DNA of 61,136 bases, the filler included, from Bonamia ostreae (taxonomy: Eukaryota): the NCBI GenBank assembly GCA_040357525.1. It is 13 parts of 13 records of this genome, joined end to end, with 100 filler letters (N's around TTAATTAATTAA, not from the genome) between each part and the next. Parts side by side here need not be neighbours in the genome. Positions count along the whole stretch, not along the records: positions 14,260 to 18,901 come from JBDODL010000285.1; 12 more parts are not named here. One strand, written 5' to 3'. The translations under genes and the position numbers were made by a program. Every line of letters begins with the position of its first letter. Position 1 is the first letter of the stretch. The notes beneath the pieces are model-generated. The model was given only the letters and a program-made list of their open reading frames with translations, made no database searches and was not told the origin of the DNA. Positions 4,656-46,224 of this stretch are shown one piece after another.

Positions 4656-4755
4656 NNNNNNNNNNNNNNNNNNNNNNNNNNNNNNNNNNNNNNNNNNNNT
4701 TAATTAATTAANNNNNNNNNNNNNNNNNNNNNNNNNNNNNNNNNNNNNNNNNNNN
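4656..4755. other. Artificial contig linker N-run/TTAATTAATTAA/N-run (first of 12)
   Basis: The same 12-mer with stops in all six frames, flanked by N runs, occurs at 4700, 9454, 14204, 18946, 23679, 28401, 33117, 37824, 42523, 47196, 51864 and 56524. The intervening contigs are all ~4.6 kb, roughly decreasing in length. Confidence 0.97.
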
Positions 4756-9373: not shown

Positions 9374-9509
9374 GTCCCACAATCTTCTTTAGCGGGATTC
9401 CTGGTGTACNNNNNNNNNNNNNNNNNNNNNNNNNNNNNNNNNNNNNNNNNNNNTTAATTAATTAANNNNNNNNNNNNNNNNNNNNNNNNNNNNNNNNNNN
9501 NNNNNNNNN

Positions 9510-13920: not shown

Positions 13921-14159
13921 AAATTAATAAAAATCGATAAATTTGATCAAAATTAATAAAAAATCGATTAAAAATAATTAAAAAATCAATAAAAAATATT
14001 GATCAAAATTAATTAAAAAATCAGTAAAAATTAATAAAAATCGATAAATTTGATCAAAATTAATAAAAAATCGATTAAAAATAATTAAAAAATCAATAAA
14101 AAATATTGATCAAAATTAATTAAAAAATCAGTAAAAATTAATAAAAATCGATAAATTTG
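13921..14159. repeat. AT-rich tandem repeat (~108-bp unit, >2 copies) at a contig end
   Basis: aaattaataaaaatcgataaatttgatcaaaattaataaaaaatcgatt... is repeated. Confidence 0.85.
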
Positions 14160-14259
14160 NNNNNNNNNNNNNNNNNNNNNNNNNNNNNNNNNNNNNNNNN
14201 NNNTTAATTAATTAANNNNNNNNNNNNNNNNNNNNNNNNNNNNNNNNNNNNNNNNNNNN

Positions 14260-15628
14260 GAGCACGCCTGGCTGGTTGTCCTGGTACGTGGTGAAGTTCT
14301 CCGTCTTCTAGGTGGGGAGGGTCGTGTTACGGGGGATCAAGGTGGTCATGATTCCGCCCGCGGTCTCGATGCCGAGCGAAAGCGGCGTCACGTCGATGAG
14401 CAGCAAGTCGCTCGTCGCTTTCCCGCCAGTCCCGCTCAGAATCGCGGCCTGCACGGTGGCGCCATAGGCCACGGCTTCGTCGGGGTTGATCGAGTGGCAC
14501 GGCTCCTTCCCGTTGAAGAAGGACTTGATCATCTCCTGGATCTTCGGGATGCGCGTGCTGCCGCCGACTAACACGATCTCGTCCACGCGCGCCTTGTCCA
14601 CCTTCGAGTCGCGCAGCACTTGTTGGACTGGGCCGATGCACTTTGCAAAGTCTTCTTGGCACAGGTGCTCGAACTTGGCCCGAGTAATCGACGAGCTGAA
14701 GTCGATCCCGTCGTGGAGAGAGTCGATGTCGACGTGCGCCTGCTTGTTGGAGGAGAGGGTTTTCTTCATGGCCTCGCTCTGCGTTATCAGCTTCCGCATG
14801 GCTCGCTTGTCCTTCGTGATGTCCTTCTTGTGCTTGCGCTGGAACTCGGACGCGAGGTGGTTCACGATCTTCAGGTCGAAGTCCTGCCCGCCGAGGTGCG
14901 TGTCTCCGGCGGTGGCCTTCACCTCGAAGATCCCGTCGTCGATCGCGAGCAGAGACACGTCGAAAGTGCCTCCTCCCAGGTCGAAGATGAGCACGGTCTT
15001 CTCCTTGTCGCTCTTCTTGTCGAGCCCATAAGCGATCGCCGCCGCGGTCGGCTCGTTAATGATCCGCAGAACGTTGAGTCCTGCTATCTTCCCGGCGTCT
15101 TTTGTAGCCTTGCGCTGTTCGTCGTTGAAGTAGGCGGGCACCGTCACGACGGCGTTCTTCACCTCCTGGCCGATCTTCTTGCTGGCCACATCTTTCAAGT
15201 AGCCGAGCAACATGGCCGAGACCTGCTCCGCGCGGAACTGCTGCGTTTTCTTCTGGTGGTTCACCTCGATGACGGGCACGCCGTTCTTGGCCGCCACTTT
15301 GAAGGGCCATGTCTTCATGTCGTTTTGGACGTTCGGGTCGTTGAACGTCCTTCCGATGAGGCGCTTCGCGTCGTAGACGGTGTTGGACGGGTTGCGGTTC
15401 GCCTGGTTTTTGGCCGCGCGGCCGATGAGGCGCTCCTCCTCCGTGAAGGCGATGTACTGAATTTAAGGAGGAAAACAGAGGGCGTGGTGCGTTCTCCGAC
15501 GTCGTTCGCGATGATCTCGGGTTTGCCGTTGACAAAGTGCCCGACGCAGGAGTAAGTCGTCCCCAAGTCGATCCCGATGCCTTTAAATATTTGGGAAAAC
15601 AAGGTCCTTCTGCTTTTTTGTCAGTCAT
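14260..15628 (-). CDS. HSP70: Cytosolic Hsp70 (3' truncated by the contig end; one in-frame TAG at 14308-14310)
   Basis: Removing 20-nt introns 15581-15600 and 15457-15476 gives [23 protein letters not shown]...[18 protein letters not shown]. Also [34 protein letters not shown] and [11 protein letters not shown]. Confidence 0.97.
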
Positions 15629-15798
15629 TGGAAATTGCGAGAATGTTCTGAATGCTAATTTTTAGTGAGAGCTTTATGAAGGGTTTAGCTAATGTTTTTC
15701 GGGCGGCTAAATTTTATTCGATATATAGATTTTTTATTTAGCGAGAGAGCTTTAAAATTTTTTTGTTAAATCGCTTTCCTTAAGAATCTCGAATAGAA

Positions 15799-17683
15799 AT
15801 GTTTTTGTTCGGCAAAAGATTCTTTTCCGGCAGCGCCCTGCAACTCTCCATTGAAAAATTTGTTATTTGCCTAATTTTAGCAAAAAAACGTCTTCGAAGC
15901 CATCAACGTTGCAAGTCCGAAACGACTCAACGTCCTGAAGAGCTTCCAGAACTACGCTCTTCTCGAAGGGAGCTTGCCCGTGGGCTCCGTGGTCGAGTTT
16001 GCGGATGGAAGTTTTGGGATCGTCAACTTTGTCGTAAAAAAACGCGTCCTCGCTCTCACCTTTAATAGAAAGGTCCGAGAAGGCGCCGGAGCCACTGCTC
16101 TGCACAACCGCTTCTTGTTTAAGTTCGAGTTTTCTTCTTTCGGGAGCTGCGTCGACGTTCTCGGTCGCCCAGTTCTCGGCTCCGAACCGGCGAACCGACG
16201 GACGGCTCTCGCACAATTGCTGGAAGACAGGTTCGGCCACAAAAAGGTCTTTCTCGACGTCTCTGGAAGAGAGTGCGTGCCCTTCCTAAAGCGCGTGCGG
16301 CTCAAATCCGTTTACCGGTTCAGAGACCTATTGCTCGACAGTTTTTGCCCGGTGCCGTACGGCTCGAGCCTCGGGATCTTCGGGGACAGGTTCATTTTTA
16401 ATGTTTTCAAATAAGAAAACAAAATCAGAAAAATTGTTAATTTCAAATTCGTTTTTCGGAATTTTCAATTTCTTTTCATAAATCGCAAAAATCGCAAAAA
16501 TTAACAAAATCGCAAAAATGATAATTTCAATTTCTTTTCATAAGAATTTTAAATTCCAGAAACATCTCAATGGCCCGCGTACGCAAAATCCTCGCGACAA
16601 TCGCCAGGAACAACTGCAATCTGGAGTACAGATCCGAAGCCGGGCTCGGCGGAAGAAAGGCCGTCGTAGTGCTCGGCGTGTCCGATTACTCGAACAGCCA
16701 CATCAACCGGCTCCGGAGCGACTTTCTCCGCGCCGCCGGCTCGGACGCGCTGGCCATCGCGAGCGAGAGCACCGCCTCCCCGCTAGAAAAGGTCCTGGTG
16801 CCCCGGGCGGCCTTCGCGGTCGGCGAGTTCCTCAGCCACCACGGCTTCGACGCCTTCGTCGTCCTGGACGATCTGGCCATGCACAGCAAGCAGCGAAACG
16901 AGCTGCTCAGGTTCCTTTCTCCACGGCAGCAAGGCGGTGGGCGACACGAAGCAGACCAACATCTACGCGACGCTCCTCGCGAAGTGCGGCGTCTACGAGA
17001 CGGAGCACGGCGTCGGGTTCTAACCGCAAACCGTAGTTCGCTCACGGCCATCTGCGCCGCCTCGAAGAACGTCGTGGGGAAGACGAACAGGCTGTTCTAC
17101 GACGCCTGGGCCGACTTGGAGTCCAACTGCGACTCTTCGCTGCACTTGGACAAGATCTTCGTCGACACGGACCTCAACTCCGCAAGATTCGCCAAGTTTT
17201 AGTTCCAACCCAGTTTCGTGAGTCCGGCGGCGCGCCCGCACGTGCAGCGGATCGCCGACTACGTCTCGACCTACAAGAGCGTCGACAACGCGCTCAAGCT
17301 GCAGCAGAAAATGGGGCTGGACGAGATGGACATGATGGAGAAAGCGCGGCATCTGAGACGGCAAAGGAAGCTGTTGAGGATGATCAGCGACTTCGACGGC
17401 CTCGCGGAAGAGGAGTCCCTGGCGTTGCTGGTCTCCGTCGGAGCCACGGGGATTCTGGACAGTGTCGCCGAAGAACACGTGCTCGACTTCGGGAACGAGT
17501 TCTTAGCCGAACTGAGGTTTCTCTACAAAGCTTCGAAGGAAAAGTCGCGTTCCGGAGAAAACGAGGAACTTGATTCGCGCGGGAAAACAAATGCCTGCCT
17601 GCGTGTTGCAGGAAATCGCAGCGTTGGCCGATTATGTTTTGAAGGTGAAGCCGTATCTGAGAGGGTGGGCTTTAGTAAAATAA
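15799..17683 (+). CDS. Highly divergent F1-ATP synthase alpha-subunit homolog (~538 aa) with mitochondrial-type presequence and degenerate P-loop
   Basis: Six introns: 15862-15880, 16390-16559, 16911-16929, 17017-17036, 17196-17213 and 17517-17538. Colinear alpha motifs: VVEFADGSFG, VDVLGRPV, LDSFCPVPYG..LGIFGDR, AFAVGEFL, VVLDDL, LLAKCG, GSLTAI. N-terminus MFLFGKRFFS. Confidence 0.8.
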
Positions 17684-18287
17684 AAATTTTGTTTGAAGAA
17701 AAACAAATTTTGATTGTTTTATCGTCTCGAACATAAAATAATAAGAAGGACAAAATAAAACAATTCGAAGAAGGTGTCTGACAGTTTGGGTTAATTATAA
17801 CATTTACGTTTTCATCTTTTGTGCTTTTATTCGATATAGAATGCCTTTATCTTTTGTGCATTTTGTTCTTTTCATCTTTCATCTTGGAATAACATTGAGT
17901 CTTGTTAGGGATACCTCTTTAATCTAAAGGGTTTTTCCAATCAGTGGTCAATTTTTTTTGTGTATAATAAGTTGTTCAGTCTATTCATTTACAATCAACA
18001 TCACTTCTCCATTTTAACTTTCCAATCAAGTTCAACATTTTTTTTATCATTTCTGTAGTTTCGATAGTTAAATCAGTTTGGCATCTGTCTCATAAAAGAC
18101 TATTTCTCTTTCGGAAATAGTCTTTTCTTCTCATAATAGAGAATTCTGGCTTGATCACCGTTGAGACAGATCATTTTCAAAATTTCAATGTTTATTTTCC
18201 AATATAGAATAAATGTTATTTAATATTTTCATTTCAATATTATCTATGTTGTATCTATTAGGTATTAATTAATTGTATTGAACAGAA

Positions 18288-18576
18288 TTGCCAAATCCCA
18301 CAAATTTCAAGACTTATCCAAAATAATCTGTTCGGGATCACAAAAGTCTCCATTCTACGCATATTATCCAAAATCTTCAAAGCCAAAACACGGGGTAAAA
18401 TATATCCACCTCTGCTCCAATTTTATTTAATCTCGACAACTCAGCGCCGAAGTCAGCACCTGAACAGAAGCAATTGATCAACTCCAAATAATTTTGGATA
18501 AATTCAAAAATGAATGCAAACGTTTAGAACTGCGAATATCTACTGAAAACTAAGATAATGTTTTTTGGAATGAGAG
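18288..18576 (+). mobile_element. Degenerate non-LTR retrotransposon (LINE-type) reverse-transcriptase remnant
   Basis: Frameshifted pieces occur in the right order: SRLIQNNL..LSKIFKAKT / GVK / SAPILFNL / DQLQIILDKFKNECKRLELRISTE / TKIMFFG. These match LINE RT motifs (S..F.V.TGVKQG..L(S/A)P.LFN; LQ..L...GL.IS..KTKIM). The YADD segment is missing. Confidence 0.55.
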
Positions 18577-19000
18577 NNNNNNNNNNGTTAATTAAAAAAA
18601 AAATTGCAAAGGTTTTCAACTGCGATTTTATACTTAAATTTGTAATGTGCGGGTATAAAACTATTCTACTTACTCAATTATTGTACTTAATTTGGATTAA
18701 AATTTGACAAACTCCCTCTTTTAAGCTTCATTTCCACAAAATCTTACCCATTTTAAACACGACGGAAATAATAAAATTTTTAAAAAATCAGTTCATCTTT
18801 ATTTTGTAAATTTTCATTTGTGATCTTGAAATAATCGGAACTTAGTTTCATTGTTTGTAATTTTTACAATTTTTTTATTTTGAAGAAGATCATACAAACG
18901 ANNNNNNNNNNNNNNNNNNNNNNNNNNNNNNNNNNNNNNNNNNNNTTAATTAATTAANNNNNNNNNNNNNNNNNNNNNNNNNNNNNNNNNNNNNNNNNNN

Positions 19001-19768
19001 NAAAATTAAATCTGTGAGTAGACCTAAATTCCACTTAAATCCCCTCATTGTGATTTTAGTAGGTCCGTTCAACGGAATCACGCCGCAGTCGGGTCCAAAA
19101 AAATCAAAATCGATTATAATTTTGTGAATATGATTTCTTTCCAAAATTGTTAAATATTGTTTGTCGTTAACGATCGCAACTGTTGCAAATTTTCCAAGAC
19201 TCTTTTCATTTTTAGTAAAAAGAACTTTATATAAACTTTGTATGTTTCCCATCATTTGATAGATGTAACCACAATTCAAATTAAAAACTAAAATCTTCTT
19301 TTCTATCTATGAGAAATTGCAAAAAATGTAAATTCAAATTACTAAAAAGGAAATTAAACATTTGCAAAAATTCTAAAATCGAATAAAAAAATCAACAGGT
19401 TTTTCTGACTTAGAACAAATGAAACTCAAAGTTTTTTCAAAATCTGTTCTATTTGGATTCCCATCTTTTACTATTTTTGTGCCCTTAACACATTTTAGAA
19501 TTTAAACTTTTTTAGAAAAGTGATCTAGAACCCTTTTTTCGACTGAATCTAGGTCCCCCACAATATAATCTGGAATTCTTTTAGAGTTCGAGTCAAAAAT
19601 TAGATTGGCGCCACCGTCGGCCGCATAAATTTGACTTGCGTTTTCGCATAAATATTCAAGGAAAATCTTGCTACAATGATCTTCTTTAATGAATTTAGGA
19701 TCGTTATTTAATACGATCAACGTGTAGTCTTTAAATAGATGTCGCCTCAAAAGTTTGCAAAGTTTCAT
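19001..19768 (-). CDS. TPK1: Thiamine pyrophosphokinase (3' truncated)
   Basis: YAADGGAN, PDYIVGDLDS, DGNPNRTDFEKTL, GPDCGVIPL, TMRGFKWNL. Confidence 0.92.
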
Positions 19769-43692: not shown

Positions 43693-43811
43693 ATTGTAAT
43701 CAGCAACAAACAACTTTTAAAGACATAAATTTCAAATCGACAATATTATATGATCAACTTATAATTGTACTAGAAATATATCAATAGCTTTAACGAACAA
43801 AAATCCGTATA

Positions 43812-44324
43812 ATGGTATTAGTGACAGGAAGCCAGAAAAGAGCTAAGCAATTATTTGAAAGACTGAACAAAGTTCTACAGAAAAAGGCGAATAACGACCT
43901 TTTAGCGGTGAATCCTACGATAGCGTATTTTAAAGCCCAATTTGAAATGATAAAATCGAAGGACAGCATAAAAAATCTCGACCAAATCGAATTAGCGCTT
44001 TATAAATGGGAAAATTTTATAAAGAAAATAGACAAACCTCACGTTTCTGGCGTTAGAATCTGCAAAGCGCCTGTTTTGCAAAACATGGGGCAAAAGTCTA
44101 AGAATCAATTTAATTCGCTCAAAAAAACGGTCGAAATAAAAGAAGCACCTCATATAAACCCAAACTCGTCAACCGAAAAATTGTCTAAAATTTCAAAAAA
44201 ATTTGACGAAAAAATCGGTGCAAAAAACAATAAACAAAAATTCGTAGAAATCGATGGATATAAAAACAAAGAACCGACAAGATATGGAGATTGGGAGTTG
44301 AAAGGACGGACAACTGATTTTTGA
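43812..44324 (+). CDS. SDHAF4: Succinate dehydrogenase assembly factor 4 (Sdh8/DUF1674) with LYR-like N-terminal extension
   Basis: C-terminal EIDG..NKEPTRYGDWELKGRTTDF signature. Confidence 0.85.
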   Translation: MVLVTGSQKRAKQLFERLNKVLQKKANNDLLAVNPTIAYFKAQFEMIKSKDSIKNLDQIELALYKWENFIKKIDKPHVSGVRICKAPVLQNMGQKSKNQFNSLKKTVEIKEAPHINPNSSTEKLSKISKKFDEKIGAKNNKQKFVEIDGYKNKEPTRYGDWELKGRTTDF

Positions 44325-44643: not shown

Positions 44644-46224
44644 TTAATTTTCCATTTCAGTTTCTTCGTTCGGGGGAGGTACAAACCAAGACAAGCGACC
44701 TCTCTGCCAATCATGCAATATCATCCTCGCACAGTTATTTACATCCGGCTCTCCGCCTTTTAGCAGTTTCCCCGACTTCTTCGCAAATTCTGCCAGAAAT
44801 TGCTCGGGATCCACCCATTCAAACTCGCCGTAAGCTCTTTCCAGAAATTCTTTTTTGACGCGCTTCAGAATTTCCGGAATGTACTGCTCTGGATTTTCGA
44901 CGTTCTCGACTCTAACAACCCCCTTCAAAACGATTTCAGCGTCTGAATCCGAATTGGGGCAGACTACGCCAGGACAGTCGACGAGATAAATTTGTTTGAA
45001 CAAAGTAACGTATTGCCATACTTTCGTTTCGCCGGCGATCGGCGCCACCTTACAGACTTTCTTCTTTTTGAGCGCGTTGATGATCGAGCTTTTCCCGACA
45101 TTCGGATAACCCACAAGTCCCACAGAAATCTGTTTCCGGTGAGAATTCAATTTTGAGTACTGTCGCAACAGCTTTATTAGCGAGCCCTTTCCTTTAAGAG
45201 AAATTTAATAAATTTATCGATTTTTCGAAAATTTAATGTTGTTACAGGCGACGCTTCGAATAGATAAGATTTATTAAAATTTGCCGTTTTAGCATTTTAA
45301 CCATTTCTAAATAAGAATTAAATTTCGAAAAACGCGTTTTTGCCAATTTTAAATATTTTGAACATCGCCAATATATTAAAAACCAAAAGGCCGTTTGATG
45401 GAAGCGTGGAAAGCAATTGCTGGGAAATCTTTGGACAGAATCCTCAGCCATTGGCGAACGGCCCAATTTGGGATGAGGTCGCACTTGTTCAAAACGAAGA
45501 CCATGTTTTTGTGGCAGTCCTTTTTGCGGAAAATCTTTTCGATGTGTTCGGATCTGGTGCCGACGGGGTTTCGCGCATCCAAAACCTGCAGCACAACATC
45601 GGAACTGTCTATCACTTTATACAGCTCGCTCCAAATCCGCTTCGACTGGCCCTTGGAGAAAATGCTTTCCCGCGCTGATTCTGAAATTTGGGCAAAGTCG
45701 TCGTCGTTGTCACTTCTCGTGCTTTTTTGGGTCTTTTGATCAAACTCGGAATGACTTTTGCGAACAGCTTTCGCGAGATCTGTCATGTTTTCGAAACTTA
45801 ATTTCGGGCGTTTTCTGGTCGATTTTGAGCCAAACGTCTGTTCGAAAGTTTCCGTCTCCAAAATTTTGCTGTTTTTCTGCTTTTTGGGCTCCTGTAACAA
45901 AGAAAGGGGCAGTTTCCGCTTTTTCAGGACGATTTTGAAGGGATCGTGCGCTTGGAGGTCCATCGCTTCTTTGAACTCGTCGAGGCTGTTCTGGGAGATG
46001 ACTCTCGTGTTACCGAACCATCTGCGGTCCGGTTGTATTTTCGCTGATGAACCCGTGTCTTTTCCGACGAGGAGAGATTTTGGCTGGTTTTTGAGGAGCG
46101 CTCCTTTTTTGTTTCGAATTGTCTTTTGTTTGTGCAGTCGAAGCCGTTTGGCGGTCGCTGTGTCTCGCTGCGCATTCAACTTGTTTAGTTTTTTGTTTCG
46201 GGGAGCCAAAAGAGTTTTAGACAT
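44644..46224 (-). CDS. NOG2: Nucleolar GTP-binding protein 2 (Nog2/GNL2)
   Basis: PDRRWFGNTR, KGQSKRIWSELYKVIDSSDVV, NKCDL, GYPNVGKSS and DCPG. One intron at ~45193-45383. Confidence 0.96.

Follow-up and report, generated by a model that had tools for sequence, protein, structure and literature searches.

The Walker A motif is reported to be conserved in F1 alpha, F1 beta and the V/A-type subunit A in an alignment of 1520 sequences from the four families of headpiece subunits, and the V/A-type subunit B alone differs, with SGSGLPHN at the place of the P-loop in ncA1V1 (PMC10656485). Subunit B of bacterial V-type enzymes does not bind nucleotide (PMC4171097). In the F1 of Bacillus the double mutation K175A/T176A of alpha abolishes the binding of nucleotide at the non-catalytic sites; the alpha3beta3gamma complex forms and its initial ATPase rate is normal, and steady-state ATP hydrolysis is 2.7-13% of wild type owing to MgADP inhibition (PMC4171097). 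In Foraminifera and Radiolaria atp1 is encoded in the mitochondrion, according to a further study (PMC10127745). A natural F1 alpha that lacks Walker A was not found described in the literature, as judged by titles and the openings of abstracts. In the current analysis we have studied a gene of Bonamia ostreae (assembly GCA_040357525.1) at positions 15799-17683 (+ strand) of a window, that is the whole stretch of DNA analysed, of 61,136 nucleotides. The gene encodes an alpha-like protein without the lysine and the threonine of Walker A. We tentatively regard it as a real, spliced and expressed nuclear gene for an extremely divergent F1 alpha-type (non-catalytic) subunit.

The Walker A site

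The codons in question are distributed over two exons.

16382..16575, +, Walker A place (16382-16389 plus 16560-16575), codons GGG GAC AG/A AAC ATC TCA ATG GCC (the stroke marks the intron), read as GDRNISMA

This octapeptide lies ungapped on residues G169-T176 of E. coli alpha, GDRQTGKT, in the alignments made with phmmer, MAFFT and hhalign alike. Gly174, Lys175 and Thr176 of the E. coli protein are thus represented by Ser, Met and Ala.

The evidence from transcripts comes from the contigs, not the raw reads, of one public run (X1), and such contigs drop rare variants. The labelling of X1 as RNA is a guess; the spliced forms in it show that transcripts are present. Three X1 contigs join 16386 to 16557 with 170 nt skipped, and the GT..AG ends of an intron are obtained by moving the joint three positions to the right, to 16389/16560. 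The spliced form has a depth of 10485 against 270 for the unspliced form (one contig, about 2.6%), and the unspliced contig shows no difference from the window over 16361-16543. Contig depth was not used for ranking expression. In a second run, X2, next to none of the stretch is represented.

An earlier note on this DNA had read GDR-NISMA in place of GDRQTGKT across the intron at 16390-16559 and had predicted the splice there; the X1 junction and the alignments bear out both. A hidden exon or another splice form restoring GxxxxGKT within 16390-16559 was looked for, and none was seen in the X1 contigs or in the reading frames of the intron. GK[ST] is encoded in no frame of its 170 nt and GxxxxGK[ST] occurs nowhere near it. 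The sole GKT strings of the locus, at 17077 and 17581, are remote from the place of the P-loop.

Gene structure and splicing

The gene model has seven exons and six introns.

15799..15861, +, exon 1, from the first ATG after an in-frame stop; 13-residue N-terminal extension, then the start of the alpha-like N-terminus
15862..15880, +, intron 1, 19 nt, GTT..TAG, absent from one X1 contig of 426 nt
15881..16389, +, exon 2, beta-barrel-like N domain and start of the nucleotide-binding domain, to G-D-R
16390..16559, +, intron 2, 170 nt, 21% GC, GTT..CAG, interrupting the R codon of GDR; removed in three X1 contigs
16560..16910, +, exon 3, central part of the nucleotide-binding domain, including the Walker-B strand VVLDD at 16858-16872
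16911..16929, +, intron 3, 19 nt, GTT..CAG, predicted from codon phase
16930..17016, +, exon 4, standing where alpha has the RRPPGREAYPGDVFY..LLERA block
17017..17036, +, intron 4, 20 nt, GTT..TAG, predicted from codon phase
17037..17195, +, exon 5, GSLTA strand and IF.DT.L motif retained, PTNVISITDGQ block replaced
17196..17213, +, putative intron 5, 18 nt, GTT..CAG, in frame, containing TAG at 17200-17202; from sequence only
17214..17516, +, exon 6, C-terminal helical domain
17517..17538, +, putative intron 6, 22 nt, GTT..AAG, of uncertain placement; a +1 change of frame is required to reach the TAA at 17681-17683
17539..17683, +, exon 7, ending with the stop codon TAA

Joined together, these exons form a frame that stays open for 538 codons, as far as a TAA, in agreement with the spliced product of about 538 residues with an intact frame over seven exons that had been proposed earlier. 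The X1 contigs cover all seven exons, and removal is seen in them for two of the six introns. Introns 3 and 4 (16911-16929 and 17017-17036) are strongly backed by codon phase: the fraction of G or C at third codon positions (GC3) of the exon following intron 3 is 1.00 in the spliced reading and 0.41 when read through, and for exon 5, which follows intron 4, the corresponding values are 0.94 and 0.42. For intron 6 the support from GC3 is weak (0.57 against 0.40). Intron 5 has an alternative in which the sequence is read through with TAG as a sense codon, and hhalign does not separate the spliced product (score 49.3) from the read-through (49.5). The effect of introns 5 and 6 on the protein is confined to one loop and the C-terminal tail.

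The introns beginning at 16911, 17017, 17196 and 17517 are absent from the X1 listing of left-out segments. The two tiny introns of the neighbouring Hsp70 gene are likewise unlisted and appear as loose ends only, so the absence of the four says little. Introns of 19-20 nt are observed three times on this contig in the X1 data, twice in Hsp70 and once as intron 1, and are therefore real in this organism. Transcript depth drops beyond about 17715 in X1.

The sizes of the introns are bimodal, at 18-20 nt and 170-192 nt (15457-15476, 15581-15600, 15862-15880, 16390-16559, 45192-45383). Every intron examined, five confirmed or defined by homology and four predicted, begins with GTT, among them an intron of 192 nt in a gene for NOG2 on a different contig (45192-45383). 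Intron 2 also carries short direct repeats (16440-16545), in which a TTCAATTTCTTTTCATAA-like unit occurs twice and AAATCGCAAAA-like units three times. The introns of mikrocytids are all 16-17 nt long, and mikrocytids are without ATP synthase (PMC10245619); an origin from that group is rejected, the window also carrying an SDHAF4-like DUF1674 ORF. The nucleomorph of a chlorarachniophyte came into consideration through the introns of 18-20 nt, but those of 170 and 192 nt in the same assembly do not agree with it.

Relationship to F1 alpha

Judged from its sequence, the protein is of F1-alpha type, with all three domains colinear, and extraordinarily divergent. The profile used for comparison was built from E. 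coli atpA and 80 gamma-proteobacterial alphas of 73-98% identity (81 in total). The joined protein was aligned to it by hhalign with a score of 49.3 (E 9.8e-6, 25% identity), query residues 14-534 lying on alpha residues 1-503. Twenty-five shuffled versions of the protein gave a mean of 15.6 with a standard deviation of 2.6 and a maximum of 22.5. The colinearity with F1 alpha claimed in the earlier note is thereby upheld. The protein retains 57 of the 215 columns that are invariant among the 81 alphas and is 23% identical to E. coli alpha.

Local alignments made segment by segment against E. coli alpha give peaks along the diagonal. The segment preceding the P-loop, compared with residues 95-185, has a z of 4.2, and none of 200 shuffles scored as high; the Walker-B segment, compared with residues 185-275, reaches a z of 10; the C domain, compared with residues 380-513, has a z of 2.3, with 6 of 200 shuffles as high. 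Pairwise alignment to E. coli alpha is not significant for the N domain or for the last part of the nucleotide domain.

The searches of Pfam, NCBIfam and PDB were made with exon pieces, separately from the alignments of the joined protein. The core encoded by exon 3 matches PF00006 with 26.3 bits (E 6.9e-6), under the cut-off of 29.5, and TIGR00962 is matched with 13.8 bits against a threshold of 484 bits. The best match in PDB is the F1 alpha of Thermotoga (2r9v_A, E 5.6e-4), aligned only around Walker B; six of the eight best distinct PDB sequences are F1 alphas and the remaining two are A-type subunits B. The N-terminal piece (exon 2) gave nothing real in Pfam, NCBIfam or PDB. The same is true of the C-terminal domain, searched as the read-through 17215-17682 in Pfam and as 17215-17514 in NCBIfam and PDB. 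The nearest clusters in the ESM Atlas, which are leads and not tests, agree with the alignment: PF02874 (ATP-synt_ab_N) for the N-terminal piece (score 0.91, 194 of 256 features) and PF00306 (ATP-synt_ab_C) for the C-terminal piece (0.94, 27 of 30 hits). AlphaFold2 run on exon 2 without an alignment gave a predicted local distance difference test score of 32.3 and was unusable.

Among the relatives of alpha the margins are small. In single-sequence hhalign comparisons with E. coli proteins alpha scored 35.1, FliI 22.3, beta 21.7 and Rho 18.5, and in NCBIfam the F0F1 alpha family scored 23.8 bits against 16.5 for V-type B. These scores suggest that alpha is closer than beta, FliI, Rho or V-type B, the last of which was compared through PDB and NCBIfam only.

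No close ortholog of the protein has been recovered. A full HMMER pass with 16561-17199 over 1.84 billion representatives returned only the open reading frame (ORF) of the contig itself (P0001). At that size a match needs about 50 bits by our own estimate, and canonical alphas, at about 23 bits, go unlisted; nothing beyond the absence of a close ortholog follows from this result. A search by word matches, with exon 2 as query and longer proteins as targets, gave no relatives, one with the C-terminal piece again gave only the contig's own ORF (P0002), and a metagenome scan in which 597 stretches matched the pattern contained no relative.

Retained and replaced features

The features kept by the protein are the segment D..P...G....I.GDR before the P-loop, the Walker-B strand P.A..A.GEF...G.DA.VV.DDL, GSLTA, IF.DT.L and several motifs of the C-terminal helices. 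Both Walker B aspartates are present, VVLDDL being aligned to IIYDDL of E. coli alpha (D261/D262). The alpha blocks RRPPGREAYPGDVFY and PTNVISITDGQ, which we take to belong to the nucleotide pocket, are replaced. The replacement strings named in the earlier note, SKAVGDTKQTNIY and DAWADLESNCDSS, were found in the product as claimed.

Upstream of query residue 14, the first to be aligned to E. coli alpha, stands the N-terminal extension MFLFGKRFFSGSA, which looks like a presequence and probably directs import into the mitochondrion.

E. coli R376 is presumably the arginine finger that reaches the catalytic site of beta, and its loss cripples catalysis in E. coli. The corresponding place falls in a stretch of low alignment confidence. 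In the MAFFT alignment this place is a gap; in that of hhalign it is Phe if 17196-17213 is kept (model C) and a gap if it is spliced out (model A); an ungapped reading puts Pro, with an Arg three residues downstream.

Expression and selection

The alpha-like gene bears the marks of good expression and of selection, and not those of decay. Its GC3 is 0.78, compared with 0.88 for the Hsp70 neighbour and 0.22-0.56 for 15 other ORFs of the window, and so marked a codon bias suggests that the protein is abundant and not a rare factor. All three X1 variants in confident exons (16288, 16342 and 16599) are synonymous third-position changes; a fourth, at 17531, lies inside putative intron 6. The view that the gene is not a pseudogene, also expressed in the earlier note, is in keeping with the frame open across six introns, the GC3 and the three synonymous variants.

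Comparison with described subunits and proposed role

The protein resembles F1 alpha (ATP5F1A/Atp1/AtpA) in length class (538 against 513 residues), in the order of the three domains and in the full-length hhalign alignment. It shares with alpha the G-D-R start of the motif, the Walker-B DD, GSLTA, IF.DT.L, the C-terminal helix motifs and a presequence-like N-terminal extension. It differs in having Ser/Met/Ala for the Gly/Lys/Thr of Walker A, in the two replaced blocks and perhaps in the arginine finger, which is unmatched in a stretch of low alignment confidence. The V/A-type subunit B is likewise a non-catalytic paralog of the same fold without the Walker A consensus, and may be the closest analogue for the mode of working (PMC10656485 and PMC4171097). 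In contrast to subunit B, the present protein scores higher against F-type alpha, its motif starts with GDR and its N-terminus is presequence-like. A B-like function, if there is one, would be a matter of convergence and not of membership in the V/A-type B family. The engineered 'delta-NC' alpha (K175A/T176A) of Bacillus F1, which lacks non-catalytic nucleotide binding, is changed at the same two residues, Lys and Thr being Met and Ala here. That alpha is a laboratory double mutant of an otherwise canonical subunit, whereas in the natural protein the whole pocket and much else have diverged.

On a provisional view, which we place somewhat short of an even chance, the protein would be part of a remodelled head, as an alpha-type subunit that has a structural role and carries no nucleotide, B-like by convergence. 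With its nucleotide pocket dismantled it would no longer bind nucleotide, and it would serve purely as a structural partner beside a beta-type subunit in the hexameric head, a state that one V/A-type subunit, B, would have reached long ago. By analogy, the K175A/T176A complex offers a precedent for the assembly of a nucleotide-free alpha and the SGSGLPHN motif of ncA1V1 one for a P-loop-less non-catalytic subunit. An enzyme of this kind would hydrolyse ATP poorly over longer times. The example given in the earlier note, of an enzyme working as an ATPase to hold membrane potential, is disfavoured by the steady-state hydrolysis of only 2.7-13% in the K175A/T176A mutant (PMC4171097). It is less likely than not, in our estimate, that the protein is moreover the sole F1 alpha of the organism; the mitochondrial ATP synthase would then have non-catalytic subunits free of nucleotide and would lack the canonical arginine finger of alpha.

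Alternative explanations

Several observations weigh against an alpha-type subunit at work in the head of an ATP synthase. Only one of the three domains, PF00006, is recognised by Pfam, and that one under the curated cut-off. Identity to alpha is about 23-25%, compared with 69% for the neighbouring Hsp70 to its best matches, and the divergence of the alpha-like protein is therefore far above the general rate of the lineage. No alignment places an arginine at the position of E. coli R376, although the stretch is one of low confidence, and given the importance of this residue the canonical catalytic partnership with beta is doubtful. Should the organism be retarian, atp1 would be expected in the mitochondrial genome and the nuclear gene would be an extra copy (PMC10127745). 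These points bear on a rival that is nearly as likely as the preferred reading, namely a neofunctionalised paralog beside a canonical alpha (e.g. a mitochondrial atp1), acting as an organellar pseudo-ATPase with a role in scaffolding, assembly or regulation, for example, and not as a stoichiometric part of F1. The disproportion to Hsp70, the unmatched arginine finger and the replaced nucleotide-contact blocks would all suit such a paralog, as would the reported conservation of Walker A in F1 alpha across the 1520-sequence alignment (PMC10656485). The mitochondrial location of atp1 in Foraminifera and Radiolaria means that in some lineages an alpha-like gene in the nucleus can be supernumerary, but this argument is conditional on the lineage. 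The strong codon bias suits an abundant protein, and the N-terminus aligns from the first residue of alpha; both speak against the paralog. We know of no alpha-derived paralog of this kind in eukaryotes, just as no P-loop-less F1 alpha appeared in the titles and abstract openings.

The other explanations are much less probable. A functionless, decaying relic of an ATP synthase under loss, to which we give little credence, would account for the loss of the most conserved motifs and for the very low identity, but not readily for a frame of 538 codons held open over six introns, for the removal of two of those introns in X1 contigs that span all seven exons, for a GC3 in the class of Hsp70 or for exon variants that are synonymous in three cases out of three. 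About as improbable, or slightly more so, is the assignment to something other than alpha, such as a divergent V/A-type B, a FliI-like ATPase or an alpha-like subunit of a gliding motor. The top NCBIfam match is in fact the alpha-like family of the Mycoplasma gliding ATPase, by 0.8 bit, and in PDB an A/V-type B has an E of 0.015, near several alphas; against this stand 2r9v_A as the best PDB match together with the preponderance of F1 alphas (six of eight) among the best, the advantage of F0F1 alpha over V-type B in NCBIfam, the alpha-type G-D-R start of the motif and the ranking of alpha above beta, FliI and Rho by hhalign. Least probable of all, and very much so, is an artefact of the gene model, that is another splice form with Walker A or a misassembly at intron 2. 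The X1 contigs come from a single run with rare variants dropped, which leaves some room for it, but 16389/16560 is the sole joint in the three spliced contigs, the unspliced contig is identical to the window over 16361-16543 and GK[ST] is found in no frame of the intron.

The contig and its neighbouring genes

The window consists of 13 contigs of 4,557-4,655 bases, ordered by size and joined by N44-TTAATTAATTAA-N44 linkers (4656-4755, 9410-9509, 14160-14259, 18902-19001 and eight more). Genes on either side of a linker are therefore not syntenic, and the real context of the alpha-like gene is about 4.6 kb (14260-18901, 4,642 bases). This contig has a GC content of 47.9% and the neighbouring contigs 27-37%; its non-coding parts are at 21-31% GC, as in the rest of the window, so its odd composition is due to two GC3-rich genes. 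Together with the GTT start shared by its introns and the NOG2 intron, this makes it plausible that the contigs derive from one organism. The second of the two genes is the following.

14260..15628, -, Hsp70, cytosolic type, truncated by the contig end, PF00012 E 6.8e-169
15581-15600 and 15457-15476, -, Hsp70 introns of 20 nt each; loose ends of X1 contigs at 15580/15600 and 15477 are the spliced junctions

Hsp70 and the alpha-like gene stand head to head with 170 nt from ATG to ATG (15629-15798). One X1 contig (15614-16058) covers part of the alpha-like gene and runs on into the first exon of Hsp70. The Hsp70 product of 14311-15456 (-) is 67-69% identical to its best 120 database matches, among diatoms, fungi and plants alike. 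These matches point to no particular lineage, and the divergence is suggestive of one that evolves fast and has no near relatives among sequenced organisms. An in-frame TAG at 14308-14310 (-) lies inside the RNTT.PT-K-K motif of Hsp70, beyond which conserved sequence resumes. Its place is taken by Lys in all 28 proteins, of 122, that matched the motif pattern, and the X1 contigs list no difference there. Three explanations come into question for this TAG, namely an error of assembly (the contig ends 50 nt away), a nonsense allele and a reassignment of the codon.

On other contigs of the window, the ORF 43794-44324 (+) has a C-terminus that matches DUF1674 (PF07896, E 6e-11), which we take to be the family of succinate dehydrogenase assembly factor 4 (SDHAF4). 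If its contig is from the same organism, complex II would be kept. An AT-rich tandem repeat with a period of about 100 nt and units like TTTTAATCGATTTTTTATTAATTTTGATCAAATTTATCGA... (seen on the - strand) occupies 13960-14159, up to the end of the contig preceding that of the alpha-like gene.

Implications

Few features of bioenergetics are as conserved as the non-catalytic nucleotide sites of F1 alpha, and the debate about what they do in vivo is still based on mutants made in the laboratory. An expressed and selected natural alpha without a P-loop would settle one of two things: either the sites are dispensable or an alpha-derived pseudo-ATPase exists. If the protein of B. ostreae is the sole alpha, an F-type enzyme occurring in nature would have arrived by convergence at the state of the V/A-type subunit B, and naturally occurring F1 could do without its conserved non-catalytic sites. 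If it is a paralog, eukaryotes would possess a pseudo-ATPase derived from alpha.

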